Source: Alphaproteobacteria bacterium
GTDB lineage: Bacteria; Pseudomonadota; Alphaproteobacteria; Bin95
Assembly (NCBI GenBank): GCA_965205265.1
Contig: CBDBGH010000003.1
Coordinates: 4,864,001 to 4,928,000 of the forward strand
Length of the DNA: 64,000 nt
Reading direction: 5' to 3'
Positions 8,900 through 58,822 of the stretch are shown here, piece by piece. The position numbers and the translations under genes were made by a program. Each line of letters begins with the position of its first letter. The stretch's first letter is position 1. Under the pieces are notes generated by a model that was not told the origin of the DNA, made no database searches, and saw only the letters and a program-made list of their open reading frames with translations.

Positions 8900-8944
8900 T
8901 TATCCGATTGCCGCCAAAAGCGGATTGTCAGGACAATCCGGCTG
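8900..8944. promoter_or_regulatory. 17-bp-period operator-like array, site A
   Basis: TTATCCGATTG-N6-AAAGCGGATTG-N6-CAATCCGGCTG upstream of the gene at 9026. Confidence 0.65.
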
Positions 8945-9025
8945 GGGCTGTTTCCCGATTTCACGGCCTCCCTCCATACTTCCGGCGACCACGGGACATC
9001 CGACAACCGGAAGGCCGCAAAGGCG

Positions 9026-9880
9026 ATGCACGCACCAGCCTCCAGAGTGGACGAAATACTCGACCGCCTGAACCGTCAGGCCCACCGTTCATTCCGGGGT
9101 TTCGACCTCACTGGCCTGGATTTCGGCGACGCGCATCTCGCCGGCATAGACCTGACCGACGCCAGGCTCGACGGCGCGGACTTCTCGGGCGCCGATCTCA
9201 CCGGGGCCACCCTGGCCAACGCCTCGGCAGCCGACGCCCGCTTTATCGGCGCCAGGATGGAAGGGGGCGACCTGAGCGGCATCAACGCTTGCGGCTCAAA
9301 TTTCAGGGAGGCAGTCCTGACTGCCGCAAACCTCTTTCAGGCTCGACTGAAGCGGGCCTGCTTCGAGAACGCCCGGCTGGACCAGGCCTCGCTCGTCTGT
9401 GCCGATGCCGCGGGCGCGGACTTCTCCTTTGCCCATCTCAGGGGGGCCGTTCTGGCCGAAGCCGGGTTGGACCGCTGCTCCTTCAACACCGCCGACCTCA
9501 GGGAGGCCCGGCTTACGGCAATCCAGGCCAGGGGCGCGGATTTTCACGCCGCCTCGATCTGGAGGGCCGATTTCGCTCTCGCGCAGCTCGTACAGTGTTC
9601 ATTCACATCCGCAACGACCCGGAACGAGGATATCCTCCCCTCCGGTCCCCAGGCCCACGGCGCGGACTTCCGGGGGACGGTCATCAACCACTCCACATTG
9701 ATAAACGCGGACCTGCGCGGCGCGGGCTTCGTCGAGAGCTTCATCCTCCATTCGAGCCTGGTGGCCGCCGACCTGCGCGGCGCCGTGTTCGACGACACGA
9801 CGATCGAGAACACGGACATGGAACACGCCCTGAAGGGCCCGTTCGGGACAGAGCCTGCGGACGTGCCGGACCTCGGATGA
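9026..9880 (+). CDS. Pentapeptide-repeat protein (paralog of 7586-8437)
   Basis: Pentapeptide repeats; shares the FRGTxINHS and ILHS segments with the upstream paralog; tail EPADVPDLG. Confidence 0.92.
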   Translation: MHAPASRVDEILDRLNRQAHRSFRGFDLTGLDFGDAHLAGIDLTDARLDGADFSGADLTGATLANASAADARFIGARMEGGDLSGINACGSNFREAVLTAANLFQARLKRACFENARLDQASLVCADAAGADFSFAHLRGAVLAEAGLDRCSFNTADLREARLTAIQARGADFHAASIWRADFALAQLVQCSFTSATTRNEDILPSGPQAHGADFRGTVINHSTLINADLRGAGFVESFILHSSLVAADLRGAVFDDTTIENTDMEHALKGPFGTEPADVPDLG

Positions 9881-9937
9881 TCCCCTTCATACGGGCTACC
9901 CAAGAACGGAAGGGAAGGGCACGCCCACATTGGCTAC

Positions 9938-9982
9938 CACAATGATTGCCAATACAATCCGATTGTATAGACAATCGAATTG
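9938..9982. promoter_or_regulatory. Operator-like array, site B
   Basis: CACAATGATTG-N6-CAATCCGATTG-N6-CAATCGAATTG. Confidence 0.75.
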
Positions 9983-10053
9983 TGCCAGAGAGGCACAATG
10001 AGCGCCCACGACAACATGACGCGCGAGCAACCGGAACAGGTGAACCTAACCCC

Positions 10054-10629
10054 ATGAATAACCCGGACAATATCCCGACGGTCATCGCGCCCGCGCGCAT
10101 CTGGGCTGCGATGCATGTGCTGGTGGCACAGATATGCGAGGAATCGGAAAAGGTGCCCCCCGAGATGCATGACAGGGCCCGCGACATCCTCGACGAACTT
10201 CTTGACGATCACGTCCCCGACCCCCTCTGCCCGGGTTGGATATGGACCGACCGGCTTCGCCGCGCCGAACGGTTTACCCACTGGGACGACGCCGATGAGG
10301 CTCGCGACAGCATGCCGAACGCAACCTACGAGCCCCCGGTGCCGCATATCGACGAGACGCCGGAAGGCGAGTGGCTGGTGTGGACCTTCGTCCACGGGCG
10401 GCGCGTCTGGATTGCGCCGGACCTGAACCGGAAGCTCGAGTTGCTCCAGGCCACCATGGAGAAAGCCGGAGCCGATGTTGCCCAGGCCCGGCGCCTTCTT
10501 CAGGACTCGGAAAACCGTTACCGCCATGCCTGCGACGCTGTCGCCGTGCAAACGGCTGCGAACGCGAGACTGGCGGCCGAAGAAACCGCTGTGGGGGACA
10601 ATCCTGACGACGACCTGCCGGCGCCGTGA
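10054..10629 (+). CDS. Hypothetical protein with C-terminal coiled coil
   Basis: Natural-looking ORF behind site B; tail DNPDDDLPAP. Confidence 0.7.
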   Translation: MNNPDNIPTVIAPARIWAAMHVLVAQICEESEKVPPEMHDRARDILDELLDDHVPDPLCPGWIWTDRLRRAERFTHWDDADEARDSMPNATYEPPVPHIDETPEGEWLVWTFVHGRRVWIAPDLNRKLELLQATMEKAGADVAQARRLLQDSENRYRHACDAVAVQTAANARLAAEETAVGDNPDDDLPAP

Positions 10630-10642
10630 ATTCTCCCCGGAG

Positions 10643-12517
10643 CTAGTCCATGTAGCTGCGGAGCTTCCGCGACCTGGACGGGTGCTTGAGCTTCCGGAGC
10701 GCCTTTGCCTCGATCTGCCGGATGCGCTCGCGGGTGACGCCGAAGGTCTGTCCGACTTCCTCCAGCGTGTGATCGCTCTGCATGCCGATCCCGAAACGCA
10801 TCCGGACAATACGCTCCTCCCGGGCCGTCAAGGTCGCCAGCGCCCCGGTCGTGCTGACCCGCAGGGAGCTCTGGATGGCTACATCGACAGGCTGGACCGC
10901 GTTGACGTCCTCGATCATGTCGCCGAGCATGCCACCGTCGTTTTCGGCGCCGATCGGCATCTCCAGGCTCACGGGTTCCTTCGCCACCTTCATCGCCTTG
11001 CGGACCCGGTCGACCGGCATCTGAAGGCGCTCCGCCAGCTCCTCGTAGCTCGGCTCCCGGCCGAGTTCGTGAACCATCTGCTGGCTGACGCGCCTCACCT
11101 TGGTGATGGACTCCACCATGTGGACCGGCACCCGGATGGTGCGGGCCTGGTCGGCGATCGACCGCGTGATGGCCTGACGGATCCACCAGGTGGCGTAGGT
11201 CGAGAACTTGTAGCCGCGGCGGTACTCGAACTTGTCCACCGCCTTCATCAGTCCGATATTGCCTTCCTGGATCAGGTCCAGGAATTGCAGGCCGCGATTG
11301 GTGTATTTCTTCGCGATCGAGATCACCAGCCTGAGATTGGCCTCGACCATCTCCTTCTTCGCCCGGGCCGCGTCACGGTCGCCTGCCTTGACCAGGACAA
11401 GAACCTCCCGGAACTCGTCGGGCAGCATGCCGGTTTCCTGGCACAGCTCGCCGAAACGCTGGCGGGCCGCACGGATGTCCTCGCGGAAACGGCTCGAGAA
11501 CGCCTTCCAGTCTTTCCGCTGACAGATGCTGCGCATCCAGCCACGGTCGAGTTCACGTCCCCGCCAGCCCTCGAGGAAGACCTCTCGCGGCATCTTCGCG
11601 CGCCGCGCGCAGCGCAGAAGGCGACTTTCCAGGCCGACGATCTCGCGCTGCGCATCGTACAGCGCGTCGCGCATCTCCTCGACGCGAACATCGAGCAGCC
11701 TGAGTTCCCGCATGGCCAGCGCCATTTCCTGCGTGATCTCACGCCAGGTGCGCAACTGGCGCGAGGAAGGCCCTTCGCCGCCGCACGCCTTCTCGAAGCG
11801 CATGGCGCGGATCCTGGCGAGCCTCGCCTCGAGGCGCGCAATCCGGTCCATGACCTCCAGGACGTGCGGTTTCAATTCCGTTTCGGTAGCCGCCAGGGAA
11901 CGGACCGCGTTGTCGTTCGCCCCATCCCCGTCCGGCATGTCGTCCGACATGTCGTCATCGTCGGCGGCGTCCGCGGATTTCCCGAAAACCTGGACCCAGG
12001 TGGCATCGAGACTCACCACCTCGCGCAGCAGCATCTCGTTGGCGTTCAGACGGTCCCTGAACCGGAGAATCCCGGCAATCGCCAGCGGGGTCGCGCAAAT
12101 CGCGCGGACCATCTTGGTCCGCCCGGCCTCGATCCGCTTGGCGACAGCGATCTCTCCCTCACGGGAGAGCAGTTCGACTTCGCCCATTTCTCGCATATAG
12201 AGGCGGACCGGGTCATCCGTCCGTGACGCCGTCTCGTCATCGACGTTTCCGGACCGCTTGACTTCCGCCAGACCTGACTCCGAAGAGGTCCCGGATATGC
12301 CGTCCTCGTCCTCGACAACCTCGATCCCCAGCTCGGCCAGGGCGGTCATCATGTCCTCGATCTGGTCGGACGATACGCGGTCCGAGGGCAGGGCGGCATT
12401 CAATTCCCCATAGGAGACCTGACCGGTCTCCCTGCCTTTCTCCACCAAGGCTTTCATGGCCTCTTCCGGAGACACGCCAGGCTCCCGATCCTGTACGCGT
12501 TCCGTTGCATTCGCCAT
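10643..12517 (-). CDS. rpoD: RNA polymerase sigma-70 factor, RpoD-like
   Basis: Region 1.1, [79 protein letters not shown]. Confidence 0.97.
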
Positions 12518-12646
12518 TCGCGCGTCTCCCGTGATCTCCCGATTGTCCCCGGTTATCGAAAATGGTCACCGGCGGCTGCCGGGTCAACGCATCCTTCCTA
12601 TTTTCACGGCCAGCCTGCATTCTGGGGCTCCAGGAAGGAGGGAACA

Positions 12647-13345: not shown

Positions 13346-13359
13346 CCGGAGCAAGGCGC

Positions 13360-15478: not shown

Positions 15479-15483
15479 ACCGG

Positions 15484-16443: not shown

Positions 16444-16488
16444 CAATTCGATTGACATAACAATCTGATTGCGACAATTATCCGATTG
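16444..16488. promoter_or_regulatory. Operator-like array, site C
   Basis: CAATTCGATTG-N6-CAATCTGATTG-N6-TTATCCGATTG; contains TTGACA at 16452; upstream of the C5 methyltransferase. Confidence 0.75.
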
Positions 16489-16592: not shown

Positions 16593-17891
16593 ATGACCCC
16601 CGGGGCAGCGCCAGGCGTAACCGAAGTCCCGCTGGGGATAGACATCCTCCAGAGGGACCTTTTCCGTCGCAATCCGGCCTTCCGGACCCTCCCGGCGGGT
16701 CGGGAGCCCTGCTTCGTGAACGCGTTTGCCGGCTGCGGCGGGCTTGCCCTGGGCCTTGTGCGTGCCGGATGGACCGGCCTGCTTGCGATAGAGGAACGGC
16801 AAGCCGCATGGGAAACCCTCTCGGCCAACCTCCTGCACCTGCACGCATTCGCCTGGCCAGCGGACATCGAATGCCGCGCCTGGTCTCTGGGCAGCCTTCT
16901 CGCGACTCATCGCGGGACGCTTGCCTCCCTTGCCGGCAACGTCGATCTCCTGGCGGGCGCTGTGCCGTGCAGTCCCGGGACCGCCCCCGAAGATCCGGCC
17001 AACCGCATCTGGCAGGATTTCCTGTCGCTTGCCGACATGCTGCGGCCCGCAGCGATACTGATCGAGAGTATGCCGGCCTTCGTGCGCTCTCCGCGCAACC
17101 GCGGCTCGGGCAGGACCGGAACGAGTTTCGCCGGCCACTTCCAGGAATCGCTTCCCGGATACGATGCGGCCGCAGCGCTGCTCGATGCGGGGGCCTTCGG
17201 CGTGCCGCAGCGCCGGCGGCGTGTCTGGGTCATCGCCACCCGGAACGACCTCGATCTGCCTGTCCAGGTCGCCGGTTTCTTCGACCGGGCCGGACGCGAT
17301 GCCTCGCTTTTCCTGCATGAACGCGGGCTTCCGCCGTCGCCGACCGCCGAGGAGGCCATCGGTGACCTGGAAACAGACGGCAATTCCGTCCCGGCCTATG
17401 GCGGGCCCCGGACGGCCTTCCAGGACGTCATGCACCGCGGATGCAACGACGAACCGGCCGACCGGCGTCTGACCCGACACAGCCATGCCGTGCAGGCGCA
17501 ATACCGGAAGGCCATTTCCCGGGCGCAACGCCCGACCGGCACCAAGAAGGCCGGGAAGGAGGGACCCGGACGCCCGACGCGAGTCCTGGAGCGGTCCCGG
17601 CCGGCGCCTCCGGTGCCGGCAAGTCCCGAAGACCTGCTTCACTACGCCGAACCGCGGACATTGACGGTCCGTGAGGCGGCCCGCCTGCAGACCTTTCCGG
17701 ACGAGTTCGCTTTCCACGGCGTTCACACGGCAAGCGGCACACGCCGCAACCGGGTGATGCCGCGCTATGCCTAGGTCGGCACAGCGACGCCGCCGCTGCT
17801 TGCGGAACAGATCGGCAGGGCCCTGTCCCGGCTCCTCCAGCATGGAGACAGGGCGCGGTCCGACATCCGCGAGCCCGCTATACATCATTGA
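16593..17891 (+). pseudogene. DNA (cytosine-5)-methyltransferase with in-frame TAG at motif X
   Basis: FAGCGG (I), AVPC (IV), GVPQRRRR (VIII), TVREAARLQTFPD (IX). TAG at 17772-17774 is followed by VGTATPPLLAEQIG up to TGA at 17891. Confidence 0.85.
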
Positions 17892-19529: not shown

Positions 19530-20393
19530 ATGACGACGCGGGAGCTTCTTCAACGCTATGGCGATGGGGAACGCGGCTTTGCCGGCATAACCTTCATCCT
19601 GCCGATCGAGCTTGAGGGCGCGGATCTGCGCGGGGCGGACTTCTCCGGGGCGATTTTCGAAGACGCTCTCATGCCGGGGGCCGACCTGCGCGGCTGCAAT
19701 CTCGCTGGCGCCTCCTTCCGTAATGCCAAACTCCAAGATGTGCGATTCACGACCCTGCCGGACCATCCGGATGCGACGGTCAGGCGGGCCGATTTCACCG
19801 GCGCCGATCTCGCCGGCGCGGACTTCTCCGACACGAACCTGCGGGGGAGCTGTTTCCGCGGCTCCAACCTTCTCGATGCCCGGCTCGCCGGCATTAACCT
19901 GCGCGAAGCGGATCTCCGCGATGCGGACCTCTCGCATGCCGTGTTCGACGGGGCGGATCTATCGGACGCCGACTTCCGGGACACCGATCTGGCCGGGATC
20001 AATCTCCGGCGGTGCGAGATGCTGCGCGCCGACTTCAGCGGCGCGAGTCTCTATGATGCAGACCTCACGGACAGCAATCTGGCCGAAGCGGTCTTCGCGG
20101 ATGCAGACCTCACAGGAACCCGGCTTATCGGTTGCTTTCTGGCTCGGGCCAATTTCGAGCGAGCCCTGCTCGCCGACACCGATCTCTACGACGCCGAGTT
20201 GCAGAACGCCCGGTTCTGCAATGCCCAGGCGCAGGGCGCATCTTTCCGGCGGTCACGTCTCGCCGAGGCCGATTTCTCCGGGGCCCTGGTGAGGAACAGC
20301 GACTTCACGGACGCCGAAATCGCCGGAACCGTCAATCTCATAACCAGCGCCTCCCTGGTGAGAAGCGTCATGATGCGCCCGCCGACGGGCTGA
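19530..20393 (+). CDS. Pentapeptide-repeat protein
   Basis: RYGDGERGF cap; tail MRPPTG; alternative TTG start at 19512. Confidence 0.93.
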   Translation: MTTRELLQRYGDGERGFAGITFILPIELEGADLRGADFSGAIFEDALMPGADLRGCNLAGASFRNAKLQDVRFTTLPDHPDATVRRADFTGADLAGADFSDTNLRGSCFRGSNLLDARLAGINLREADLRDADLSHAVFDGADLSDADFRDTDLAGINLRRCEMLRADFSGASLYDADLTDSNLAEAVFADADLTGTRLIGCFLARANFERALLADTDLYDAELQNARFCNAQAQGASFRRSRLAEADFSGALVRNSDFTDAEIAGTVNLITSASLVRSVMMRPPTG

Positions 20394-21486
20394 ACCACGG
20401 GAACGACAGGGACGCCAAGTGCTCCGCGGCCTCGCGCTCCCGTTCATTCCCCCGGCTGCCCATATCCAGGAATGTGCGCAGGGCATCGGTGCAGACAATG
20501 CCCGGAGCGGGCACCGCAACATGCAGGAAGACATCGCTCCTCTCATCCGGCACCGCAACCTCGAGGGCGCCGTAGCCTTCCTGCAAGCGCACAAGCCCCG
20601 GCAGGCCATCGAGCAGCTCCAGACCCTGCCGGTCCGCATACAATGTGGCGTGCATGCCCCGCAGGAAGGGGGCAATCCACTGGGCGGCGGAATCCCGGCA
20701 ACGGACAATCCTGGGCCGCCCGGACTCCGCATTGAGAGGAATGCCGCGCAGCACGGCGGCAAGGGGTTCCCCGGGCGCCGGACTGTAGAAGGCCCTCATG
20801 CCGATTGCCGGCTCCCAGGCCACACTCCAGGCCTGCAACAGGCGGGCAGGTTCCGTAAGGACAAACCCTTCCTTCCGCCGCTCTCCCCAGGCCCGGGTTC
20901 CCAGCTCCCGACAGATCGCACTCACATGCCCGACGCTGACACCGGCCCGGTCGGCCAGCGCCACGACCCGCCAGGGGCGGCCGGGCTCCGAAAGCAATAC
21001 TCGCAGCACCATTCCGGCCCGGGCGCCGAAAAGAGACTTCAGCCTCCTCGAAGGGCTTTTCGCGGGCTGGCCGGGAACCTGTATGTCCATATGCATACCT
21101 CCGCCGGAAATATGGGCATTCCCGAGCCTGTCGATCCAGGAAATGCCCAACTCCGTGCACGCGGCCCTGGCTTTCGGCGACAGGAAGGGAGCGCAGATCA
21201 CCGGGACCGGATTGACACCACCGCCACCACCACTCGCTGCGGCGCCAACCTTGCCGAGGACGCCCATATAGCTCCGGAGCCGGTGGGCGGCCGCTTTCAC
21301 GAACCGGGGCGCGCCGTCTTCCTCGTTGCTGACGACGATCATGCAGGACTTCCCGTTCACGGTTGCCGGAATACAGCCCGAAATTCCGTAGAGAGCCAGG
21401 TCGCGGCCATCTCGGACCGCATCCCCGGTCTCGACAGCCCAGGCCTTCCCCAGGACTGCCAGAATCATCTCGACCGCGTCAGCCAT
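20368..21486 (-). CDS. AbiEi-like (type IV TA antitoxin-like) wHTH protein with no adjacent toxin
   Basis: APFLSPKARAAC...WIDRLGNAHI, VLRVLL...LADRAGVSVGHVS, TFLDM...REREAAEHL. Confidence 0.7.
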   Translation of the reverse strand: MADAVEMILAVLGKAWAVETGDAVRDGRDLALYGISGCIPATVNGKSCMIVVSNEEDGAPRFVKAAAHRLRSYMGVLGKVGAAASGGGGGVNPVPVICAPFLSPKARAACTELGISWIDRLGNAHISGGGMHMDIQVPGQPAKSPSRRLKSLFGARAGMVLRVLLSEPGRPWRVVALADRAGVSVGHVSAICRELGTRAWGERRKEGFVLTEPARLLQAWSVAWEPAIGMRAFYSPAPGEPLAAVLRGIPLNAESGRPRIVRCRDSAAQWIAPFLRGMHATLYADRQGLELLDGLPGLVRLQEGYGALEVAVPDERSDVFLHVAVPAPGIVCTDALRTFLDMGSRGNEREREAAEHLASLSFPWFSPSAGAS

Positions 21487-21551: not shown

Positions 21552-21605
21552 TAATCCGATTGCCAACGCAATCTGATTGCGTGAGCGCATCGAGTGCGCT
21601 ATACT
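21552..21605 (+). promoter_or_regulatory. Operator-like site D with sigma70-type promoter
   Basis: TAATCCGATTG-N6-CAATCTGATTG; TTGCGT (21577)-N17-TATACT (21600). Confidence 0.75.
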
Positions 21606-41702: not shown

Positions 41703-42480
41703 CCCCCGTGTCTTGCGCCGTGCTCTTGCCCGCTCCTTTTGCCGATCGCCGCCGGCGGCGATCGGCGCTGCGCTGCTTCTGGCGTTCCTCGGCCTCCTTG
41801 CGGCGGTATGAGTCGCCGTCGATGGCGAGGATCTCGGCATTGTGGACGAGCCGGTCGACAAGGGCCACGAGGCAGGCGGCGTTGGGGAAGGCCTCGCTCC
41901 ACTCGGCGAAGGGGCGGTTTGTGGTGATGATGGTGGAGCGCTGCTGGCTGCGGCTTGAGACGATATTGAACAGCAGGTCGGCATGACGGTTGGAGTAGGA
42001 GAGATATCCGACTTCGTCGATGACCAGGAGGTGCTGGCGGGCGTAGAAGCGCAGCCTGCGCTGGAGCATTGTGTCGGAGTCGATGGCGGCGAGCTCGCCG
42101 AGCAGGCTGGCGGCGGTTGCGAAGCGCACGGTGTGGCCTTCGAGGACGGCGCGGTGTGCGATATTGGCGGCGATTGTGGACTTGCCGACGCCGTTGGGGC
42201 CGATGAGGACGACATTGGCGCCCTCGCGGAGGAAGTTGAGGGTCATGAGGTCCTCGACGGCCATGCGGTCGCATCGCCTTGGCCAGTCCCAGTCGAAGTC
42301 GGCGAGCGGCTTGAACTGTCCGAGGCGGGCGGCGGTGAGGCGTCGCCTGAGGCTTCGGCTTCGCCTCTCTTCCTCTTCCCATGCGATCAGGGGCGGGAGC
42401 CAGTCGCGCTCCGCAACCTCGCTCCAGTGGGCGAGGAGGCCGTGCAGTCCGAGCGCCGTGGCGCGGTCCTTGAGGGTCAT
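41695..42480 (-). CDS. istB: IS21-family ATPase IstB
   Basis: [32 protein letters not shown]. Confidence 0.95.
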
Positions 42481-43982
42481 TCTTCGCTGTCCTCCTCGTG
42501 GTGGCTTGCGAGCCCGTCGTATCCGCCGAGGTCGTGATCGCGGACCGCGATATCGCGCAGTCTTGGATCGCCGGGCAGGTCGATGGGGATGGGTGGTGGC
42601 TCGTTGCGCTGTTCGCGCCGCCGGTTCAGGCTGAAGCGCACCGCATTGGGATGGGGGACGCCGCGCTCAAGGGCTTCATCGATGGCGGCTTCGAGTTCGA
42701 CGGCTCCGTAGTCGTCGAGCAGGCGCAGCAGGGAGGCGACGGTTGTGCCGATATTGCCGCCGCGCCTGGCGGTCTCGGCAAGCAGGCGCTCGCTGTCGGG
42801 GGCGGCCTGGAGAAGGCGGCTCTGCCCGCGCAGGCGGTGGGCGTGACGTTTGAGCCTGACCAGCTCCTCGATGTGCTCGGGGGTCTCGATGCGGGCCGCC
42901 TTGTCGAAGCTGCGCGGATGACGGGCGACGGTGTCGGCGCCGTCGAGGATGCGTACCTCCTCCAGTGTCGCGACCACGGTGAGGGTGCGCCGCGTATGGG
43001 TATGCGGGACGCTATAGTCATTGAGGTCGAACCTGGCGTAGGGGGTCTTGCCGATCCTGACCTCGACCCTCTCGTCGACGGGGGGCCGGTCGTCGGGCAG
43101 CGCCATCAGGGAGCCGCGCTCGCGCTCGAAGGCCTCGCGCACGGTGAGGGAGCGGTCGTCCGGCCAGCGACGGTCGGCGGCGACGCCGTCGCACCAGGCG
43201 CGGGCCCGGGCGTTCAGGTCGTCGAGGTCGCGCCAGGCGCGGGCGGCGAAGAAGTTGTCGCGCACATAGCGTATGGCGCGCTCCACGCGCCCCTTCTCGT
43301 TGCCGCGCGCGACCGCGACCGGCTTGGGCAGGAAGCGGTAGCGGGCGGCGAAGTCGAGGAGCCGGGGGTTGAACCGGATGGCGTCGCCCTGGCGCTCCAG
43401 CACGACGCTCTTCAGGTTGTCGTACCATAGCTCGCGGGGCACGCCCTGCCAGGCCTCGAAGGCCTCGACATGGCCGCGCAGGAAGTTGTCCATCGCGGCA
43501 TTGAGGTAGAAGTGCAGGAAGATGCGGCGCGAGTAGCTCAGCACCATCACGAAGCCCATCAGCGGGCGCTCCGCGCGCCCGATCCTCACCTTGCCGAAGT
43601 GGGCCCAGTCCACCTGGGCCAGCTCGCCGGGCAGGGTCTTGAGGCGCAGATAGGCCTCGGCCACAGGCCGCGGGCGCTCCGGCGCGATCATGCGCCGGAA
43701 GTGGCTCTGGCTGCCCCGGTAGCCGCGCTCGACCGCCATCTGGTAGAGCCGGCTGGCTGGCAGCCTGGGCCAGACCGCCAGGGTCTGGCGGATGAAGGGC
43801 CGGAACGGATCGATCATCGAAGCCCTGCGCCGCCTCTCACGCGCGGGCGCCCCGGCGGCCGCTACCGCGCGCTCGACCGTGCCGTGGTGGACGCCGAGCT
43901 GGCGCGCGATCGTGCCGATCCTCCACTTCTCGGCAAAATACAGCCGCTGGATCTCGGCACGGGTCTGCTTGTCGATCGCCAT
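42477..43982 (-). CDS. istA: IS21-family transposase IstA
   Basis: AQVDWAHFG, YDNLKS, GNEKGRVERAI, NDYSVP. Confidence 0.95.
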   Translation of the reverse strand: MAIDKQTRAEIQRLYFAEKWRIGTIARQLGVHHGTVERAVAAAGAPARERRRRASMIDPFRPFIRQTLAVWPRLPASRLYQMAVERGYRGSQSHFRRMIAPERPRPVAEAYLRLKTLPGELAQVDWAHFGKVRIGRAERPLMGFVMVLSYSRRIFLHFYLNAAMDNFLRGHVEAFEAWQGVPRELWYDNLKSVVLERQGDAIRFNPRLLDFAARYRFLPKPVAVARGNEKGRVERAIRYVRDNFFAARAWRDLDDLNARARAWCDGVAADRRWPDDRSLTVREAFERERGSLMALPDDRPPVDERVEVRIGKTPYARFDLNDYSVPHTHTRRTLTVVATLEEVRILDGADTVARHPRSFDKAARIETPEHIEELVRLKRHAHRLRGQSRLLQAAPDSERLLAETARRGGNIGTTVASLLRLLDDYGAVELEAAIDEALERGVPHPNAVRFSLNRRREQRNEPPPIPIDLPGDPRLRDIAVRDHDLGGYDGLASHHEEDSEE

Positions 43983-45106: not shown

Positions 45107-45691
45107 TCAGTCTTCCCCGTGTCTGCGGCCGCCGACCGCGGCGGCAGGATCAAGCCACCGCGGCCCGGCCGTATCCGGTTCCGCGTGTGCGTCCTCGCTC
45201 CGCATTTCCGCCAGCAGCACGCCCGCCAGCACGGTCAGGACCGGCAATCCCAGCCCCACCGGAATGACGAGGATGATCGCCGCCCCCATCTCCATCGCGA
45301 ACAGGAGAGCCAGCTCCGTCGAAACGAGCACCGCAACGAACCCGCAGGCCATACCGGCGCGGGTGGCGATGGCAACCGCCTGGAACCGGCCTTCCCCGAC
45401 GGGAAGCCGCAGGCGACCCGACCGGGCCGCGACCGCCTCGCCCCAGCTCGCGCAAAGCCGCCCGACAAACCGGCTTGCCACAAGCGCGCACAGGATGAGC
45501 GCCACTGCAACACCCGCCTCGATGAGAGGCATGCCCTGCGAGCCCACCGTGTGTTGCGTCCGGCCGAAGGCCTCGTGCAGCGTCTCGTGCACGAGAAGAA
45601 CCAGGAAAACCGCAATCATGCCCCTGACGCCGGAGCGTCCGGCCTGCCCGTAGATGAGGCCCAGATAATCCGCAAAGCTTCTGTATGGCAC
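45107..45691 (-). CDS. Membrane protein (about 4 TM)
   Basis: Hydrophobic segments; downstream of promoter site E. Confidence 0.7.
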   Translation of the reverse strand: MPYRSFADYLGLIYGQAGRSGVRGMIAVFLVLLVHETLHEAFGRTQHTVGSQGMPLIEAGVAVALILCALVASRFVGRLCASWGEAVAARSGRLRLPVGEGRFQAVAIATRAGMACGFVAVLVSTELALLFAMEMGAAIILVIPVGLGLPVLTVLAGVLLAEMRSEDAHAEPDTAGPRWLDPAAAVGGRRHGED

Positions 45692-45744: not shown

Positions 45745-45781
45745 ATTATATGCCAATCCGATTGGTATGGCAATCGGATTA
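45745..45781 (-). promoter_or_regulatory. Sigma70-type promoter with overlapping operator-like site E
   Basis: Minus strand TTGCCA (45773-45768)-N17-TATAAT (45750-45745); CAATCCGATTG-N6-CAATCGGATTA. Confidence 0.85.
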
Positions 45782-51983: not shown

Positions 51984-52104
51984 GTCGAATTCCCGCCAGG
52001 TCCAGGGAGAAGAGGCAAGGGGGTCAGGGATGCATTCCGCATCGTTCAGACATGCCCGGCGCCCCGGGCATCGCGCGTGTTCCGTGACCGGCCGGCCCCA
52101 AGCC

Positions 52105-52773: not shown

Positions 52774-53001
52774 TCAGATCCCCGGAAACCGGCGGTCGAT
52801 CCAGGCCTCGACCGCTGTGGCCCGGGTCCGGAACTTCCGGTGAAGCACCCATGCCAGCCCCAGCAGCGCGGCCCCGAAGACCGCGGACGCGCCAACGGAC
52901 CCGATCCCCAGAAACAGGCCGGCCAGGTGGAAGACCGGCCACAGGAACGAGGCAAAGAGGATGCCCAGCACAAAGCCGACCGCGATCAGGATCATCTTCA
53001 T
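52774..53001 (-). CDS. Small 2-TM membrane protein
   Basis: MKMILIAVGFVLG...; AGGAG RBS. Confidence 0.65.
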   Translation of the reverse strand: MKMILIAVGFVLGILFASFLWPVFHLAGLFLGIGSVGASAVFGAALLGLAWVLHRKFRTRATAVEAWIDRRFPGI

Positions 53002-53255
53002 GTCCGGCGCTCCTGTCCTGGCGTTCCCTGCGTCCCGGACGACCTGCCGCCCGGAGCGTGGCGCCAAGAATAATCGAGATCCCTGAAAAACGCGCTCCCG
53101 CATGCCACCCTCGAAAGGATGGCCGCCAGGGCCATTGCCGCCATCGCCGCCATCGCGACCCGGGATCCGGCCATGAATGGCAGCGCCCAGCCGATCTGCA
53201 CCGCCACAACTGCAGTGCAGGTTACGGACAGGAATCGGAGATGTTTCTCGAGCAC
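52998..53255 (-). CDS. Small membrane protein
   Basis: Behind promoter site F; ATGA overlap with the next gene. Confidence 0.6.
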   Translation of the reverse strand: MLEKHLRFLSVTCTAVVAVQIGWALPFMAGSRVAMAAMAAMALAAILSRVACGSAFFRDLDYSWRHAPGGRSSGTQGTPGQERRT

Positions 53256-55564
53256 GGCAATTCCTGCGGTTCGGGACGATCCCCATTATATGCTGATTCG
53301 ATTGCACCGACAATCGGATTATTGTTCCACTCGTCAGCCGACACCGGCTCTGCATGTTCCGGCAGGACCATCCGGGCCTCGCGGTCGATCGCGGCCAGCA
53401 CGCCTGCCTCTGCAAGACCCCGCCGGATCCGCGCAGACACGGCCGCCTGACTGGCCGGGCCATCGTCCCGCACCAGGGCGGCCGCCCGCGCCTCGGCTTC
53501 CCGGCAGAGGCCGGCCAACCGCCGGTGAATCGGGTCGGCTGGGTCATATCTCGGCACCGGCACGGTTTTCCAGAGCGTCCGGCTGAAATGCCTTCCGGTA
53601 CTCTTTGCCTCCGCGAAGGCCTCCCTCAGACAGGGCGCGTTGAGGAGGGCGACCAGGAACGCCGCCTCCGCCGACGACGAAACCTGCATCAGGTTCAGTG
53701 TGTGGTCCATGATTGCGCGGCCCGGATCGATCCGGGCCGCGCGCATGATGTCTCCGGATACCGGATGAAGGACAAGGAACCTTTCCGTGCGACAGTTCCG
53801 GGCAAGTTGGAATGACAGCCGCCCGTTGTAGTCCAGACGGTCGAGCAGGCATCCCGGCGTATGGCGGCCCGAGCCGCGATGGTCGCGATAGATGGCGTCG
53901 AGCCGTCCCCAGAACGGACACAGCGGTCCCGGATCGGCCTCGAGACCGCCTTCACGGTCAACGGGAACGATGGCCTGGGACTCCGCCGCCCTGACGACGA
54001 AGGGCAGCATCTCGGCCGACGTCACCGTATCGCGCAGCCAGCGTTCCGGGACATGGCCGGTCTGCCGCGGGATGCTCTTCCAGGGATCCTTCATCGAAGG
54101 CAGGGTCTCGACCGGGACGCCGGCCGCCTCTTCCGGTCCCGTGCGCCGGACCAGGCTCAGGACGCGCGGATAGAAGGTCACGCCATTGGCCGGCGCGTCC
54201 TTGCCGCACCATGCGGACGGCCGCGCCGGCCTGGGACGGGCTGCCGGAACGATCTCCATCCACTTTGCGGCTTCCGCCGTCCCCATCCAGGATCGCGGCG
54301 GTCCGTGACCGGCCCTCCGCCGGGCCACCAGGTTCCCTGTCGGCCCGGCGCAGTTCTCGAACAGGACACAGCAACGCCGGGCCTCGCCCGATCCGAAGGG
54401 CCGGACCGCCTCCAGGTCGAGCACGCTCATACTTTCCGGGGCGTGCCGCTCCCGGTAGCGCGCCCAGGAGCCCGCGGTCCGCGCCGCGCTCTTCACGACC
54501 CAGGCCGCCGCATCATTCTGCGGATTCCCCAACCAGAGCCCCCGCATCCGGACCGCGCAGATCTGCGCCACATCCAGATGCGGGGCATGGGCGCCGCCCG
54601 GAAGGATCCCGAGCTTGCCCGCCAGCTCCTCGAGGACCTGCCGGTACCCCGCCTCTCCCAGGGAAGCCGTCGAGTACCATGGCGGGTTGGCGACAATGCG
54701 GTCCACCTTCCGGGCGGCCAGCATTTTCAGCCCCGGGCCGGGCTCCCCGGCGCCTGCCAGGAGCCCGTCGCCCCAATGGATATGCAGGGCGTCCGCCCCG
54801 CCCGCAGGCGAGACTCCCAGGGCGCGCAGGACTGTCGCCCGGGCCAGAAGGGCTGCAACGGGATGAATATCCACCCCGTGGACCAGTCTGGCCACCACGG
54901 TGCTGCGCTCGGCATCCGGCGGGCCGGCTGCCGCCTCCGTCCGCATGAGCTTCCTCACGGCGTGCCACAGCAATGTTCCGGACCCGCAGGCCGGGTCGAT
55001 CACGCCAATGCCGGGGACCTGCCCGGTGCGGCTCGCCCGGGCCGCCTCGACCGCCCGTTCGCACCAGTCGTCATCGAGAACGCGCTCGACGATCAGGCCG
55101 GCGAGCCAGTCCGGCGTATAGAACGCCCCGCCGAGCCGACGCTCCCGCTCTGCGGTCATGCGCTCGTAGAGAATCCTGAGCATGTCGCCGTCCCGGCTCC
55201 AGTCCGTCCGGCGCACGGCGTCCCCGAGCGCCTGCGTCCATTTCAGGCCCGCATTCCCGGCACCGGCGATCCAGCCCGCGAAAGCCGACTCCGGCGTGGC
55301 TGTCGGCCCGGACATCCGTTCCAGAAGGGCACGGGCGAGCATGGCGAGACAGGAATGCGCGATGAAAAGCCGACGGGCGATATCTCCGTCCGTCGGTTCC
55401 ATGCCGCCCGCCCGGAGCATTCGCGTCCAACCCGCAAGGGACCGTCTGAATCCTTCCAGAGCCGGGCCGGCCAGACCGGCCGCGAGCAGACCGAGCCGGT
55501 CCGACAGGTCCTCGAATGCGGCAAGCGGGTCGCCCACGCCCGGCAATTCCGGGTTACGGCCCAT
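53222..55564 (-). CDS. Large N6-adenine DNA methyltransferase (type IIG-like, no evident nuclease domain)
   Basis: GAFYTPDWLA, IDPACGSGTLL, GVDIHP, IVANPPWY. Confidence 0.85.
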   Translation of the reverse strand: MGRNPELPGVGDPLAAFEDLSDRLGLLAAGLAGPALEGFRRSLAGWTRMLRAGGMEPTDGDIARRLFIAHSCLAMLARALLERMSGPTATPESAFAGWIAGAGNAGLKWTQALGDAVRRTDWSRDGDMLRILYERMTAERERRLGGAFYTPDWLAGLIVERVLDDDWCERAVEAARASRTGQVPGIGVIDPACGSGTLLWHAVRKLMRTEAAAGPPDAERSTVVARLVHGVDIHPVAALLARATVLRALGVSPAGGADALHIHWGDGLLAGAGEPGPGLKMLAARKVDRIVANPPWYSTASLGEAGYRQVLEELAGKLGILPGGAHAPHLDVAQICAVRMRGLWLGNPQNDAAAWVVKSAARTAGSWARYRERHAPESMSVLDLEAVRPFGSGEARRCCVLFENCAGPTGNLVARRRAGHGPPRSWMGTAEAAKWMEIVPAARPRPARPSAWCGKDAPANGVTFYPRVLSLVRRTGPEEAAGVPVETLPSMKDPWKSIPRQTGHVPERWLRDTVTSAEMLPFVVRAAESQAIVPVDREGGLEADPGPLCPFWGRLDAIYRDHRGSGRHTPGCLLDRLDYNGRLSFQLARNCRTERFLVLHPVSGDIMRAARIDPGRAIMDHTLNLMQVSSSAEAAFLVALLNAPCLREAFAEAKSTGRHFSRTLWKTVPVPRYDPADPIHRRLAGLCREAEARAAALVRDDGPASQAAVSARIRRGLAEAGVLAAIDREARMVLPEHAEPVSADEWNNNPIVGAIESAYNGDRPEPQELPCSRNISDSCP
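53285..53321 (-). promoter_or_regulatory. Sigma70-type promoter with operator-like site F
   Basis: Minus strand TTGTCG-N17-TATAAT; TGATTCGATTG-N6-CAATCGGATTA. Confidence 0.8.
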
Positions 55565-55568
55565 CCAT

Positions 55569-56072
55569 TCAGAATCCGGGCTCCGGCAGGGCGGACATCG
55601 ATTCATCCTCTTCCCCGTGATCGGGACCGTGACCGTTGTCGTGCTCGAAGAGGATGCGATAGGTATCGTCTTCGATGACATGCGGCTTCAGCCAGTCATG
55701 GAAAGCCCCGAGGTCCCAGTCACCGGCGGCTACCTCGATGACCCGGTCCGCGATGTCATCGTTGGAAAGCCCCGGGTCGAGCCGCAACCCGTTTGCCGCG
55801 AGCATCGTCACCAGCGCGCCATATCCGGCCCGCTTGTTGCCGTCGACGAACGGATGGTTCTTGACGATCGTCCAGCAGAGCATGGCCGCGGCCTCGACCG
55901 TTTCCATGTCATCCGCATAGGCGATCGCATTGCCGACCCGCCCGACAGCGGACTCCAGCAATCCGAGGTCGCGGATTTCCGGCGCCCCTCCGAAACGCCG
56001 GATCATCACGTCATGCTGTTCGATGATGTCGGCGGTGTCCGGCAGGAAGATCGCCCGCCGGTCGCCGGTCAT
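55569..56072 (-). CDS. doc: Doc/Fic-family toxin
   Basis: IRDLGLLESA, HPFVDGNKR; extra tail EEDESMSALPEPGF. Confidence 0.92.
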   Translation of the reverse strand: MTGDRRAIFLPDTADIIEQHDVMIRRFGGAPEIRDLGLLESAVGRVGNAIAYADDMETVEAAAMLCWTIVKNHPFVDGNKRAGYGALVTMLAANGLRLDPGLSNDDIADRVIEVAAGDWDLGAFHDWLKPHVIEDDTYRILFEHDNGHGPDHGEEDESMSALPEPGF

Positions 56073-56287
56073 TGCGCGAGCCGCCGGTACAGGTCGGCCC
56101 GCATGTCCATGTCGTCCATCAGGGCCTGGTGCATCGCGCCCGAAACCGAATTCCTCGCCTTGACCAGCACCCCGTCCTGGACCGGCACCGTCACGACCTC
56201 GTCGTTCAATCCCAGATTGGCCTGGGCGAGCACCTCGCGCGGCAGCGTCACCATGTGCGACCCCCCGACTCTCACGATCTTCGGCAT
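56069..56287 (-). CDS. AbrB/MazE-type antitoxin
   Basis: KIVRVGGSHMVTLPREVL; ATGA overlap with doc. Confidence 0.85.
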   Translation of the reverse strand: MPKIVRVGGSHMVTLPREVLAQANLGLNDEVVTVPVQDGVLVKARNSVSGAMHQALMDDMDMRADLYRRLAQ

Positions 56288-56305
56288 GGAACCTGCTCCC
56301 CGATT

Positions 56306-56343
56306 GTTATACAAATCATATAACTTTTTCGGGGGACTGTCAA
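56306..56343 (-). promoter_or_regulatory. TA operon promoter and operator
   Basis: Minus strand TTGACA-N17-TATGAT; inverted repeat GTTATA-N7-TATAAC overlaps the -10 box. Confidence 0.75.
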
Positions 56344-56393
56344 GCCTGCCGCGCCGACCGGCGAGGGAACGGCCTGCGGCGAAAGCAGGTCGC

Positions 56394-58238
56394 CTACCCG
56401 GCCGCCCTTTCCTCCGGGTCGCGGTCATGCTGCCAGAAGCGCGGATCGCCCGGCCTGGGCGGTTCCGTCATCTGCTGTCTCCGGAACTCCTCGATATCCC
56501 GGCGCTGCCGGCGCACCGCATCGCCGTCGTTCGGCTCCCCGTCGTCTCCGGGCGGTTTGCTCAACTCGAACGCCCGTTCCACGAGGGACCTCGCCGTCCC
56601 GTAGTCATCGGCCGCCAGGATGTGCTTCGCGACCGGCCGTTCCCTCAACGAAAGGAACAGGTCCACGGCGGCTTCATAACCGGCTTTCCTGAAACGGTCC
56701 CAGGAGAGATCCGGCGGCCCGGCCTCTTCTCCGGCCTCCTGGGAGGTCAGTTCGCCGATACCGTTCAGCAGCGCCTGCAACGCCTCGTTGTCGCACGAGT
56801 AGCCGCCGATCTGCTCGTCGAACTCATGCGCCAGTTGCGGATGCCTGACGACCGCCAGGATGACCTGCATCGCGCGAATGGTGTCGCCGGAGAGCCCGAT
56901 CCCCGCGTCTCCGCCCGGGCGCGGTCGCGGACGGTTCCGGCGCCCGTCCGGGACCGACGGGACTATGCCGAATTCCTTGTGGCACCGGTCCTGGACCTCC
57001 CGTTCATGAAACGCCCGGAGGTCCCGATCCCCTATCCGTCCGCACAGCGTGAGCAGGGCGCGCAGGCACCCGGCCTTGGCGCTCGCGGACTGCGGGTTCT
57101 CGAACCGCAACTCGCTTGTCCAGAGCGTGCCGACCAGGGTCTCCGCACCGTCCAGCGCCGCCCTCAGCGCCTCCGGCCCGCCGGGGGCCCTCACCAGGTC
57201 ATCCGGGTCCTTCCCCTCCGGCAGCGTCGCAAACCGCAGCGACTTGCCGGGCCGGATGGCTTCCAGGGCCCGCTCCGCGACCCGGCGGGCCGCCCTCTGG
57301 CCCGCCTCATCGCCATCGAAACAGAACACCGGTTCGTCGACGATCTGCCAGAGCGCCTTCAGATGGTCCTCGCCGAACGCCGTTCCGAGAGCGGCAACAG
57401 TCTGCGGGAACCCGGCCTGCGACAGCGCGATGGCATCCATATAGCCCTCGACCACCACAATCTCCCGCTTCCGCCAGGCATCCTCGCGCGCCTGGGCGAG
57501 CCCGTACAGGGTCTCGCGCTTCCTGAAGACGGGACTTTCGGCCGTGTTGAGGTATTTCGGCTGACCGGCGCCGAGCGTGCGCCCGCCGAAGGCGATCACC
57601 CGCCCCCGGCGGTCCGTGACAGGGAACACGACGCGTCTGCGCAGCATCGCGCTCGGGCCCTCATCGTCGTGCCGGGGGGCGTGCACCATCCCGGATGCGA
57701 CGATCATCCTGTCCTCGAACCCGGCTTTCGCCAGCATCTGCGGCAGGGCCTGACCGTTGGCAGGCGCCCAGCCCAGGCGAAACCTGCCGATTGTCTCGTC
57801 ATCCAGGCCGCGGCCATGGAGATAGGCCAGCCCCTCCCGCCCTTCCGGCATGCGGAGCTGCTTCTCGTGGAAAGCGGCCGCAGCCTCCATCGCATCCTGA
57901 ACGGTCTGGCGCTCGCCCGCCCGCCGCGCCGCCTGCGGGTCGCGCGCCGGCATCTCCAGTCCGGCCCGGGCGGCGAGCTTCTCGACGGCTTCGGGGAAGG
58001 AAAGCCCCTCTATCTTCATCACGAAATCGAAGACATCCCCGTGCTCGCCGCTCGAGAAGCAATGGTAGAAGCCTTTCTCCGGGACGACGGTGAATGACGG
58101 CGTCTTTTCCGTCTTGAACGGCGACAGGCCGCTGAATTCCCGTCCGGTCCGTTTCAGATTGACGTGGGGCGAGACGATGTCCGTCAGCGGCACGCGTTCA
58201 CGAATGCTGTCGAGAAATTCCGGCGTGAATTCCACCAT
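56394..58238 (-). CDS. dnaG: DNA primase DnaG
   Basis: GLSPFKTEKTPSF..YHCFSSG, AFGGR, KYLNTAE, VVEGYMDAI, CFDGDEAG, GKDPDD. Confidence 0.97.
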   Translation of the reverse strand: MVEFTPEFLDSIRERVPLTDIVSPHVNLKRTGREFSGLSPFKTEKTPSFTVVPEKGFYHCFSSGEHGDVFDFVMKIEGLSFPEAVEKLAARAGLEMPARDPQAARRAGERQTVQDAMEAAAAFHEKQLRMPEGREGLAYLHGRGLDDETIGRFRLGWAPANGQALPQMLAKAGFEDRMIVASGMVHAPRHDDEGPSAMLRRRVVFPVTDRRGRVIAFGGRTLGAGQPKYLNTAESPVFRKRETLYGLAQAREDAWRKREIVVVEGYMDAIALSQAGFPQTVAALGTAFGEDHLKALWQIVDEPVFCFDGDEAGQRAARRVAERALEAIRPGKSLRFATLPEGKDPDDLVRAPGGPEALRAALDGAETLVGTLWTSELRFENPQSASAKAGCLRALLTLCGRIGDRDLRAFHEREVQDRCHKEFGIVPSVPDGRRNRPRPRPGGDAGIGLSGDTIRAMQVILAVVRHPQLAHEFDEQIGGYSCDNEALQALLNGIGELTSQEAGEEAGPPDLSWDRFRKAGYEAAVDLFLSLRERPVAKHILAADDYGTARSLVERAFELSKPPGDDGEPNDGDAVRRQRRDIEEFRRQQMTEPPRPGDPRFWQHDRDPEERAAG

Positions 58239-58314
58239 GCCCCTGCACCCTGTCGCCCGAGCCGCCCGGGACCGTGCATGCTACACGCTGACGGCTCCCT
58301 CCGATACATCCGAG

Positions 58315-58368
58315 AGCATAGCGTAAGCGGATTGTCGTTGCAATCGGATTACTATATCAATCGGTTGG
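58315..58368 (-). promoter_or_regulatory. dnaG promoter with operator-like site G
   Basis: Minus strand TTGCAA-N17-TATGCT; TAAGCGGATTG-N6-CAATCGGATTA-N6-CAATCGGTTGG. Confidence 0.8.
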
Positions 58369-58390
58369 GTGCTTTCGCCGATGGATTGAC

Positions 58391-58780
58391 GGACCGCCAT
58401 ATGTGGCGGTCCCCGGGCGGCGCTGCGACGTCCCTGGCCCGGGGAGGCTCGCAGCTGGAGGCCAGGGCGCCGAAGGAATCCCGGCCCTTCAGGACCGGGA
58501 GGGATATTGCGGTCCGATCCCGACGAAATGTCCCGACCGGCTCTACCGGGCATGCCGGCTACATACCCGGGAGCCGGTCGGGACCTCTACCGACGCAGGG
58601 GGGAGGAAACCCTGAATCGGCAAAGCCCATGCCGCGCCGACGGCAGTGCCCTTCGCGAACTCACACCCGGCCCCGGGCCATCTTCCTGCCCATATCCGAG
58701 GTCGGACCGGGAGACCGGTCGCTTTCATCGTTCCACGGAAGCCGCATGCCCAATCCTCACCCTCCAGGCATGTACGCAGC
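58391..58780 (-). ncRNA. Candidate structured non-coding RNA or ssDNA element
   Basis: Several perfect stems plus a long-range stem; no convincing ORF; lies behind promoter H. Confidence 0.4.
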
Positions 58781-58785
58781 GCATT

Positions 58786-58822
58786 ATTATATGACTCTCC
58801 GATTATCATTGCAATCGGATAA
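58786..58822 (-). promoter_or_regulatory. Sigma70-type promoter with operator-like site H
   Basis: Minus strand TTGCAA-N17-TATAAT; CTCTCCGATTA-N6-CAATCGGATAA. Confidence 0.8.

Follow-up and report, generated by a model that had tools for sequence, protein, structure and literature searches.

A putative palindromic operator in 17-bp phase on the promoters of a giant alphaproteobacterial island, and a partition-type protein as its candidate repressor

Which protein reads a short palindrome that recurs, in a fixed phase, at promoters scattered along an alphaproteobacterial chromosome? The palindrome came to light in a 64,000-nucleotide stretch (the window, C3:4864001-4928000) of C3, the 5.46-Mb chromosome contig of the genome under study (G000; GenBank assembly GCA_965205265.1). 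A first-pass annotation of the window described units of the form CAATCSGATTG (S being C or G) in exact 17-bp phase at eight places, and proposed that they form an element-wide operator for one repressor. The window is the 4.864-4.928 Mb part of a low-GC island of ~0.55-0.58 Mb. The analyses described below make it very likely that the motif is the dyad operator of one island-encoded repressor overlapping ~40 promoters, and they point to a small partition protein of the island, apparently of the ribbon-helix-helix (RHH) type, as the probable repressor.

Two exact copies of the unit occur in the window, against a mean of 0.03 in shuffled sequence. Matches with at most two mismatches per unit are, by count alone, mildly raised (25, the shuffle expectation being 18.0), and they are arranged as runs at exact 17-bp steps at the places that had been described. 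All eight sites lie at the coordinates given by the first-pass annotation, and all were recovered by a scan with a position weight matrix (PWM); seven of them are among the matches with at most two mismatches, and the first units at 53294 and 58795, which exceed two mismatches, are seen both in the sequence and in the PWM scan. Over the whole of C3, 25 pairs of units with at most three mismatches in total stand at an offset of 17 and three at 34 (2 x 17), with none or one at each of the other offsets from 11 to 39. No such phased pairs were found on the two other contigs of G000, C1 and C2 (the latter of 43 kb), and a reversed-pattern control gave zero in all 41 genomes searched.

For a census, 32 sites were used to build the PWM, its spacer columns being zeroed, and a threshold of ≥14 bits was applied. 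It splits signal from noise cleanly; C3 holds 60 positions at ≥14 bits and 58 at both 16 and 18 bits, while one position was found on C1 and none on C2. Fifty-seven of the 60 lie in C3:4.74-5.325 Mb and three outside. Grouped, the C3 positions make 42 loci, 40 of them in C3:4.74-5.32 Mb, and the other two, at 3.634 and 3.736 Mb, are both in small islands having genes in common with the big one, several of these being 99-100% identical to their big-island counterparts. The scan of the whole replicon thus restricts the motif to the island and two small related ones. Far from being equally common in coding DNA, 38 of the 40 island loci are intergenic, whereas 82.5% of the island is coding by the same gene calls, which are based on codon usage and take the most upstream start codon. 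As to the remaining two island loci, one is probably a start-codon overcall and the other falls within the final 100 nt of a gene. What had been called an element-wide operator therefore holds good as one shared type of site on strong promoters of a mobile island, and is not confined to the window in which it was first seen.

Exact two-unit matches are rare elsewhere, as a scan of ~185,000 species genomes returned two loci only, one on the contig of an alphaproteobacterial metagenome-assembled genome (MAG) and one on a Lachnospiraceae MAG contig (L044). The latter is the only match outside the Alphaproteobacteria and may be due to chance. The first-pass annotation had not recognised the motif as a known operator, and we likewise did not find CAATC(C/G)GATTG as an operator in the full-text literature searched; one match was a PCR primer, and the rest were judged unrelated from the title or the start of the abstract.

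The units are built into promoters. The consensus of 32 oriented sites is CAATCSGATTG-cCAtgA-CAATCGGATTG-Tga-TAt; that is, unit 1, a spacer cCAtgA, unit 2 (CAATCGGATTG), three bases that are often TGn, and then TAtaat. The TTG of unit 1 and the first bases of the spacer make a TTGACA-like -35 box, and unit 2 occupies the 17-bp promoter spacer. Of the 32 sites, 24 have T at +31 and 21 have A at +32; TAnnnT at offset 31 is complete in nine, and 21 have at least two of its three bases, the maxima at other offsets ≥28 being five and 11. These -10 counts are inflated, because the orientation of each site was taken from the highest promoter score among two strands and three spacings. The best -10 box is at a spacing of 18 bp in 11 of the 32 sites, mostly overlapping the first bases of a third unit, as do GACAAT in the window and TACAAT at parA. 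The positions of the units are kept across sites, and the spacers vary. The 28-45-bp module is the only part common to the loci, the flanks differing at every one of them.

The first called gene in the direction of the promoter is typically 40-170 nt past the site. Such genes encode a DnaG-like primase, C5 methylases, a GapR-like protein, a Thg1-like protein, an RNA ligase, Fic, HipA, an AlpA-like protein with an antitoxin, Band7/NfeD and ankyrin proteins, besides many proteins without a family. The only perfect two-unit site has an integrase behind it, and the site at 5094713-5094757 carries TTGACA-17-TATAAG aimed at a tRNA array ~100 nt away. Judged by the sites, the 40 island loci thus precede several unrelated operons (primase, methylases, integrase, parA, tRNA array, Fic, HipA and AlpA-like).

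The island itself has a GC content of 0.65-0.69 in 20-kb bins, against 0.70-0.73 in the bins on either side (chromosome mean, 0.684). It carries conjugation-type genes (a TrbC/TraD-like coupling protein, DotD- and TcpQ-like proteins) and a tyrosine integrase, is rich in IS21-type and other insertion sequence (IS) copies, toxin-antitoxin pairs and duplicated genes, and holds no fewer than 35 pentapeptide-repeat proteins and no fewer than 15 ankyrin proteins, besides Cas1, Cas2 and several orphan DNA methyltransferases. The genes rpoD, dnaG and lexA occur in second copies, and ClpS, DciA and RNase H are also encoded. The rpoD paralogue is full-length (window 10643-12517(-)), and the window dnaG is separate from the host dnaG-rpoD pair at 3.347-3.350 Mb. 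We counted 31 tRNA genes on the island, 28 of them in one array at 5,094,894-5,101,696, and a second tmRNA with a different tag at 5,292,698; 30 of the 32 tRNA and tmRNA types duplicate ones outside the island. By its gene content the island appears to be a giant mobile or once-mobile replicon, which in the present assembly is integrated in the chromosome. The relaxase family PF03432 had no match in G000, other relaxase families not having been searched, and a megablast of the window against plasmids matched rpoD alone, its 44-60 kb part being without any match. The Pfam scan covered the island proteins except for 159, of which 140 exceed 320 aa in length and 19 are small.

The promoter richest in units belongs to a parA operon ~55 kb past the end of the window (Table 1). 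It has five units, lying over the -35 box, the spacer and the -10 box; TTGACC is in the third unit, and TACAAT overlaps the fifth, whose end is 28 nt short of the ATG. The best NCBIfam match of the ParA is NF041546 (ParA_partition) at 94 bits, under the 180-bit cut-off of that model. An open reading frame (ORF) for a small RHH-type protein begins 63 nt after parA and encodes 95 aa, or 110 aa from an upstream start. Type Ib par operons are described in PMC3235114 as having a small ParB, a centromere-binding protein (CBP) of 46-131 aa, that attaches to repeats at the par promoter and acts as its repressor. The island operon has the type Ib layout, with a short ParA, a small protein directly 3' of it and repeat units over the par promoter.

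The 95-aa protein has a basic, disordered N-terminus, and in its model a strand (residues 41-48) is followed by two helices (49-62 and 66-79). The Foldseek matches listed are all RHH proteins (CdbA, CopG, Arc, AmrZ, ParG, omega, PutA and RHH antitoxins), but with E ≥0.23. Modelled as a homodimer it scored 0.78 against 0.01 for the best control, with agreement of at least 97% in contacts among three runs and a partner predicted local distance difference test (pLDDT) value of at least 87. RHH dimers being among the solved structures, this score may reflect likeness to them, or memory of them by the predictor, and speaks for the fold and not for binding by this protein. The mark set for the dimer score is reached by 20 of 30 proteins solved as same-chain pairs and by one of 23 solved as single chains. 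A profile search against PDB sequences returned CdbA only (E = 0.17). The protein has no Pfam family at E ≤1e-4 and no tblastn match among plasmids at E ≤1e-3, and a word-index protein search found only the protein itself.

Relatives of the pair elsewhere supply a family-wide link between protein and motif. Homologues of the 95-aa protein (31-41% identity) were found in three of 400 other genomes of the class, and in the two closer ones, G094 and G375, the gene follows a short ParA. Upstream of parA in G375 lies a 17-bp-period array of 2.8 copies at 100% match, ended by the contig edge; in G094 there are four copies with spacings of 17, 34 and 17 bp (units TTACCGGGTAA, TAATCGGATTG and TACCGGATTA). 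Of the island proteins, two alone recur on both the 23.5-kb G094 contig and the first 40 kb of the G375 contig, namely ParA (at 54-56% identity) and the RHH protein (at 36-42%). On the G094 contig there is besides a clear two-unit site, which falls between convergent ORFs and away from any obvious promoter, and a doubtful one.

A scan of metagenomes confirmed 191 relatives; 80 loci were retained, and 78 of these contain the conserved strand motif. We analysed the 63 loci that had the strand motif, a Walker-A ParA upstream and at least 200 nt of upstream DNA. Their summed 8-mer self-matches number 341 at offset 17 and 211 at 34, with at most 29 at any other offset from 6 to 40, and 37 of the 63 have their best offset at 17 or 34. 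The arrays are upstream of parA, and their unit consensus, TTATCSGATAA, has the same ATCSGAT core as the unit in G000. Papers matching this family consensus looked unrelated by title or start of abstract; subscription journals were outside the search, so an older description of the site (e.g., for pTAR) is possible. The CBP strand reads GQVHAKV[M/L]P in the metagenomic relatives and SQVHAWVRP in G000. Hence the core of the unit and the Q and H of the strand are kept, and the outer two bases per arm (CA...TG) and two residues (K to W, M/L to R) are changed.

Searched by tblastn, the G094 protein matched 63 PLSDB records, annotated as ParB or hypothetical, from Paracoccus, Zymomonas, Sulfitobacter and others, so that by sequence the small-ParB family is common on alphaproteobacterial plasmids. 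Two whole plasmids (47 and 41 kb) have phased units upstream of parA only. More distant cousin pairs, again a short ParA and a small RHH-type protein with palindromic iterons 5' of parA, are present on C2 of G000 and in G642; their iterons are of a GATAGCTATCG-like unit with an 11-bp period, a specificity unlike that of the island. The C2 pair (C2:21178-24408, L087) consists of a ParA of 225 aa and an RHH-type protein of 108 aa. The order, parA and then the small protein, is the same in G094, G375, C2 and G642. Because palindromic arrays stand at all five genomic ParA-CBP loci examined and at most of the metagenomic ones, we read the motif as the cognate site of this family.

On this evidence, we consider it probable that the motif is the cognate unit of the type Ib partition RHH protein encoded by the island itself, which would double as an island-wide repressor. 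An RHH dimer would bind each 11-bp palindrome. As the units form part of the -35 box, the spacer and sometimes the -10 box of ~40 near-consensus sigma-70-type promoters, the bound protein would keep RNA polymerase out and so shut these promoters. The parA-CBP operon, which has the densest array (five units), would be under negative feedback from its own product. The protein would act as centromere binder and island-wide repressor at once, as omega does on pSM19035 and KorB on RK2; a site of centromere binding and autoregulation would then have been recruited as the standard operator of strong promoters across the island, and the dispersed sites may have a partition role too. If island DNA entered a cell without the RHH protein, all the promoters would fire until the protein accumulated, by the negative-feedback logic demonstrated for R388.

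Several observations weigh against this assignment. The 95-aa protein was found (E ≤0.01) in one of the 17 genomes of the genus, namely G000 itself, and yet four of the other 16 (G002, G010, G012 and G015) have one or two operator loci each. If those promoters are regulated in their present hosts, another binder must be at work there. Part of these loci belong to a recurring module composed of the operator-promoter, a conserved leader of 200-360 nt (with blocks GGTCAGCnGAnGA and GGTGTGAnnGACCCCG) and a Lon-like AAA+ gene of ~400 aa. The module is found at L031:9800-11412 (C3 3.634 Mb), L032 (G002), L036 (G015), L051:11638-13077 (G012) and C3:4973633-4975148, and the operator is kept in front of AAA+ genes that, in G002, G012, G015 and at C3 3.634 Mb, are just 52-59% identical to the island copy. 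These orphan modules are the main reason why we call the named protein probable and go no further. In addition, a centre-to-centre distance of 17 bp places neighbouring dimers on different faces of the helix, so that cooperative binding would need another geometry. The structure model of the 95-aa protein is of modest confidence (mean pLDDT 65.4, from a 3-row alignment), and the co-variation of the CBP strand with the outer bases of the unit, being a single lineage contrast, is suggestive only. The inflation of the -10 counts mentioned above has to be kept in mind as well.

The orphan AAA+ modules may be remnants, satellites reading the repressor of the big element, or a sign of another binder. 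In the island copy, the cassette at 4973633 is followed by an AAA+ gene with an in-frame stop and an inserted HigA-like helix-turn-helix (HTH) sequence. At 3.634 Mb and in G012, the AAA+ gene is followed by genes for an 80-aa membrane protein and a nucleotidyltransferase-like protein, and the same promoter and leader are found with other cargo at C3:3,736,269(-). G012 further has a four-unit array (G012:C5:2530882-2530943; L035, L051), in which one outer spacer is the reverse complement of the other; an unrelated RHH-like ORF of 60 aa is found 220 bp upstream of the array, and ~2 kb without a called gene downstream.

Other candidate binders were examined and set aside. LexA, whether of the host (0.193 Mb) or the island (LexA2; C3:5303196-5303879(-), L066, at 5.303 Mb), is rejected, as both lexA genes carry GAAC-N7-GAAC and no CAATC unit; the motif is accordingly not the host SOS box. 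LexA2 is a paralogue confined to G000, 66% identical to the host LexA, and each of the remaining 16 genomes of the genus yields a single full-length LexA match. A ParB/KorB-type binder is rejected on the grounds that no ParB_N protein (PF02195) is encoded in 4.79-5.32 Mb; the PF02195 matches in G000 are at 3.46, 3.91, 3.97, 4.31 and 5.377 Mb. The 60-aa RHH ORF beside the G012 array is rejected as a common regulator, since tblastn found no homologue in G000 (best E 0.08). Just four canonical HTH_3 regulators were detected in the island, namely HipB, two proteins of 105 and 75 aa, and the sequence inserted into the AAA+ gene; none of them is beside a multi-unit site. Membership of the 95-aa protein in the omega family is rejected too, there being no Pfam match at E ≤1e-4 and the palindromes having a 17-bp period in place of contiguous heptads.

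Four other explanations of the motif have to be weighed against a doubling partition repressor. The operator may belong to another, unrecognised DNA-binding protein of the island, the parA operon being merely one of its targets. This is unlikely, but it is the rival we take most seriously: in the four other genomes of the genus that have operators the RHH protein went undetected, a large share of the island proteins is without a Pfam match in addition to the 159 left unscanned, and small genes directly behind operators, which are possibly self-regulated, encode a GapR-like protein, an AlpA-like protein and a 72-aa protein with two CxxC pairs, which by eye we take to be a zinc ribbon. Arrays with the same core and the same 17-bp period nevertheless stand upstream of parA together with this very ParA-RHH pair at 63 metagenomic loci, in G094 and G375 and on two plasmids, and only ParA and the RHH protein are common with the G094 and G375 contigs. 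LexA2, moreover, has its own SOS box, and ParB_N proteins are missing from 4.79-5.32 Mb.

It is improbable that the dispersed sites are mainly extra centromeres of a very large replicon, their overlap with promoters being secondary. There are precedents for dispersed sites, in that the ParB iterons of the myxococcal plasmid pMF1 are spread along the plasmid (PMC3235114), and the two-unit site of G094 is likewise distant from an obvious promoter. Against this, nearly all the island loci (38/40) are intergenic, the units keep a fixed register with the -35 and -10 boxes that a pure centromere role does not require, and the island is integrated in the chromosome in the assembly.

We regard as very unlikely the idea that the sites are a special class of promoters, read by the RpoD paralogue of the island or switched by an activator, and not repressor operators. 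A full-length second RpoD is indeed encoded on the island, and it would make biological sense for orphan copies in island-free genomes to stay silent. The hexamers are, however, of ordinary TTGACA-17-TATAAT types at optimal spacing, and units that are dyad-symmetric, repeated, located in the spacer and present in 3-5 copies at parA fit steric repression rather than recognition by a sigma factor. Finally, that the repeat was spread by duplication or by a small mobile cassette and has no regulatory meaning is hardly credible, even on an island so rich in IS elements and duplicated genes, given that flanks differ at every locus around the common 28-45-bp module, that unit positions are conserved while spacers vary, and that the module is conserved across genomes before genes of only 52-59% identity.

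The individual features are collected in Table 1.

Table 1. Operator sites, their targets and the candidate binder. Positions are those of the window unless preceded by C3.
Feature	Position	Strand	Description
Operator, 3 units (TTATCCGATTG / AAAGCGGATTG / CAATCCGGCTG)	8900..8944	+	33.0 bits; at, or shortly before, the 5' end of pentapeptide gene 8783-9880(+)
Operator, 3 units (weak / exact / 1 mismatch)	9938..9982	+	39.0 bits; TTGCCA-18-GACAAT, -10 overlaps unit 3
Operator, 3 units	16444..16488	+	36.9 bits; TTGACA-18-AATTAT; 105 nt 5' of C5 methyltransferase
C5 cytosine DNA methyltransferase, target gene	16593..17774	+	PF00145, E = 1.2e-28
Operator, 2 units between divergent promoter-like sites	21552..21579	.	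38.6 bits
Operator, 2 units (exact + 1 mismatch)	45754..45781	-	40.7 bits, best in genome; TTGCCA-17-TATAAT
Operator, 2 units	53294..53321	-	32.7 bits; TTGTCG-17-TATAAT leftward to 75-aa membrane-like ORF 52774-53001(-)
Marginal, doubtful site	56296..56323	-	14.4 bits; just upstream of MazE-like/Fic-Doc pair 55569-56287(-)
DnaG-type primase, island copy, target gene	56394..58238	-	DNAG_N, Zn_ribbon_DnaG, Toprim
Operator, 3 units	58324..58368	-	35.1 bits; TTGCAA-17-TATGCT leftward, ~90-100 nt upstream of DnaG-like primase
Structured stretch, 422 nt, between two leftward promoters	58369..58790	-	minimum free energy -228.7 kcal/mol, z = -4.28; 0/100 shuffles fold as well
Operator, 2 weaker units	58795..58822	-	26.9 bits; TTGCAA-17-TATAAT leftward into structured stretch
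Short ParA, 228 aa	C3:4982831-4983517		Pfam CbiA/VirC1/ParA; P-loop at very N-terminus
RHH-type candidate CBP, 95 aa	C3:4983580-4983867		directly after ParA

The five pairs of -35 and -10 boxes that the first-pass annotation had assigned in the window (at 45754, 53294, 58795, 58324 and 21552) are all correct as read from the sequence. The promoter-like sites at 21552 are TTGCGT-17-TATACT rightward and TTGCGT-17-TATATG leftward, the latter toward a 372-aa ORF (20368-21486(-)). The first site in the table was classed as coding sequence because the gene caller takes the most upstream start codon. The site at 9938..9982 precedes a 191-aa ORF without a family match (10054-10629), the promoter at 45754 reads leftward to a 194-aa membrane-like ORF (45107-45691(-)), and the site at 53294..53321 is within the 3' end of an N6-methylase-like gene (53222-55564(-)).

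As to the targets that had been named downstream, Pfam agrees with dnaG, the C5 methyltransferase and the pentapeptide gene. The two membrane proteins (45107-45691(-) and 52774-53001(-)) are membrane-like from their sequences and have no Pfam match, and the structured region does fold, at z = -4.3. The last, which immediately precedes the primase gene and could be a leader, a non-coding RNA or a structure of the single-strand initiation type, was covered by an Rfam search of the whole window that gave no matches.

Some other features of the window are worth recording. Three 551-aa ORFs for DDE transposases are of identical length and score (4907-6562(+), 29043-30698(-) and 35065-36720(-)), and IS21-type istA/istB pairs (e.g., 41695-43982) recur across the island and at 3.73 Mb with 99-100% protein identity. 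Pentapeptide-repeat proteins account for 17 of the 62 proteins called in the window, at 7586-28638 and elsewhere, their genes standing mostly head-to-tail beside orphan methyltransferases and an ankyrin protein; these runs look like a bank of DNA-mimic or anti-defence-type genes.

If the partition RHH protein is the repressor, the consequences are considerable. A single protein would be a handle with which to switch a giant mobile element on or off, and the likely early genes (primase, orphan methylases, pentapeptide proteins and the tRNA array) could be named without expression data. The widespread small-ParB family, with its 63 plasmid records and 191 metagenomic relatives, would moreover gain a previously undescribed site, an ATCSGAT-core palindrome with a 17-bp period. 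It is tempting to speculate, tentatively and against our own expectation, that the 95-aa protein is the master switch of a half-megabase transmissible replicon, so that its loss, or entry into a naive cell, reboots the whole element, and that the cassette islands of sister genomes are satellites or sensors. The element has its own tRNA set, tmRNA, sigma-70, primase and LexA, and the cassette would stand before ~40 transcription units, among them those of the 28-gene tRNA array, of the integrase and of whole banks of DNA-mimic-like pentapeptide and methylase genes.

What is new here is a named candidate repressor that probably belongs to the type Ib partition RHH proteins, in a class of dual regulators with omega, pMF1 ParB and KorB. 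Partition proteins are known as global repressors on small plasmids with a handful of sites; the present case would be roughly tenfold larger in scale, with ~40 promoters over ~0.55 Mb and a standard cassette that makes operator and promoter one. The small plasmid of omega has contiguous 7-bp heptads, bound by it at a few promoters; the 17-bp spacing in G000 is unlike these and unlike the subsites of Arc/CopG. Omega, an RHH protein of the inc18 plasmid pSM19035 that works with the delta ParA, resembles our candidate in being a small centromere binder paired with a short ParA and with repeats at promoters, and in having multiple sites on its replicon; it is described as a global regulator (PMC3235114). 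The island differs in its 11-bp palindromes, 17-bp period, ~40 loci and ~0.55-Mb length, and omega ranks only 33rd among the fold matches of the 95-aa protein.

The 75-aa ParB of the Myxococcus plasmid pMF1, from a type Ib parCAB operon, is similar in that it binds iterons, at six sites (ItA to ItF) along the plasmid, and represses its par operon (PMC3235114). Unlike G000, pMF1 is a small plasmid with a AGATGTCT-like 8-mer, some of its sites are inside ORFs, and a third protein, ParC, is needed; a promoter-embedded cassette is not described for it in the portion of PMC3235114 at hand. KorB of the IncP-1 plasmid RK2 acts, with KorA, as a partition protein and plasmid-wide repressor through a short palindrome with a central S at a dozen sites. 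KorB is nonetheless an HTH protein of the ParB family, whereas the G000 protein is probably of the RHH type and no ParB_N protein lies in 4.79-5.32 Mb. Repeated promoter-bearing cassettes upstream of anti-restriction and establishment genes are known from the CUP elements of pKM101; CUP/ArdK and pLS20 are analogies of possible workings only, not of protein family. In R388, strong promoters under negative feedback burst on entry into a new cell (PMC3937220), and that small plasmid has six repressors, whereas G000 has one operator type for ~40 promoters. ArtA of pSK41 is also among the closest described cases (PMC2777438). So are the small ParBs of alphaproteobacterial plasmids (63 PLSDB records), which are of the family of the G094 homologue and share with the island the parA-then-ParB order and the 17-bp-phased units upstream of parA; the G000 protein is divergent, and tblastn retrieves no plasmid with it at E ≤1e-3.

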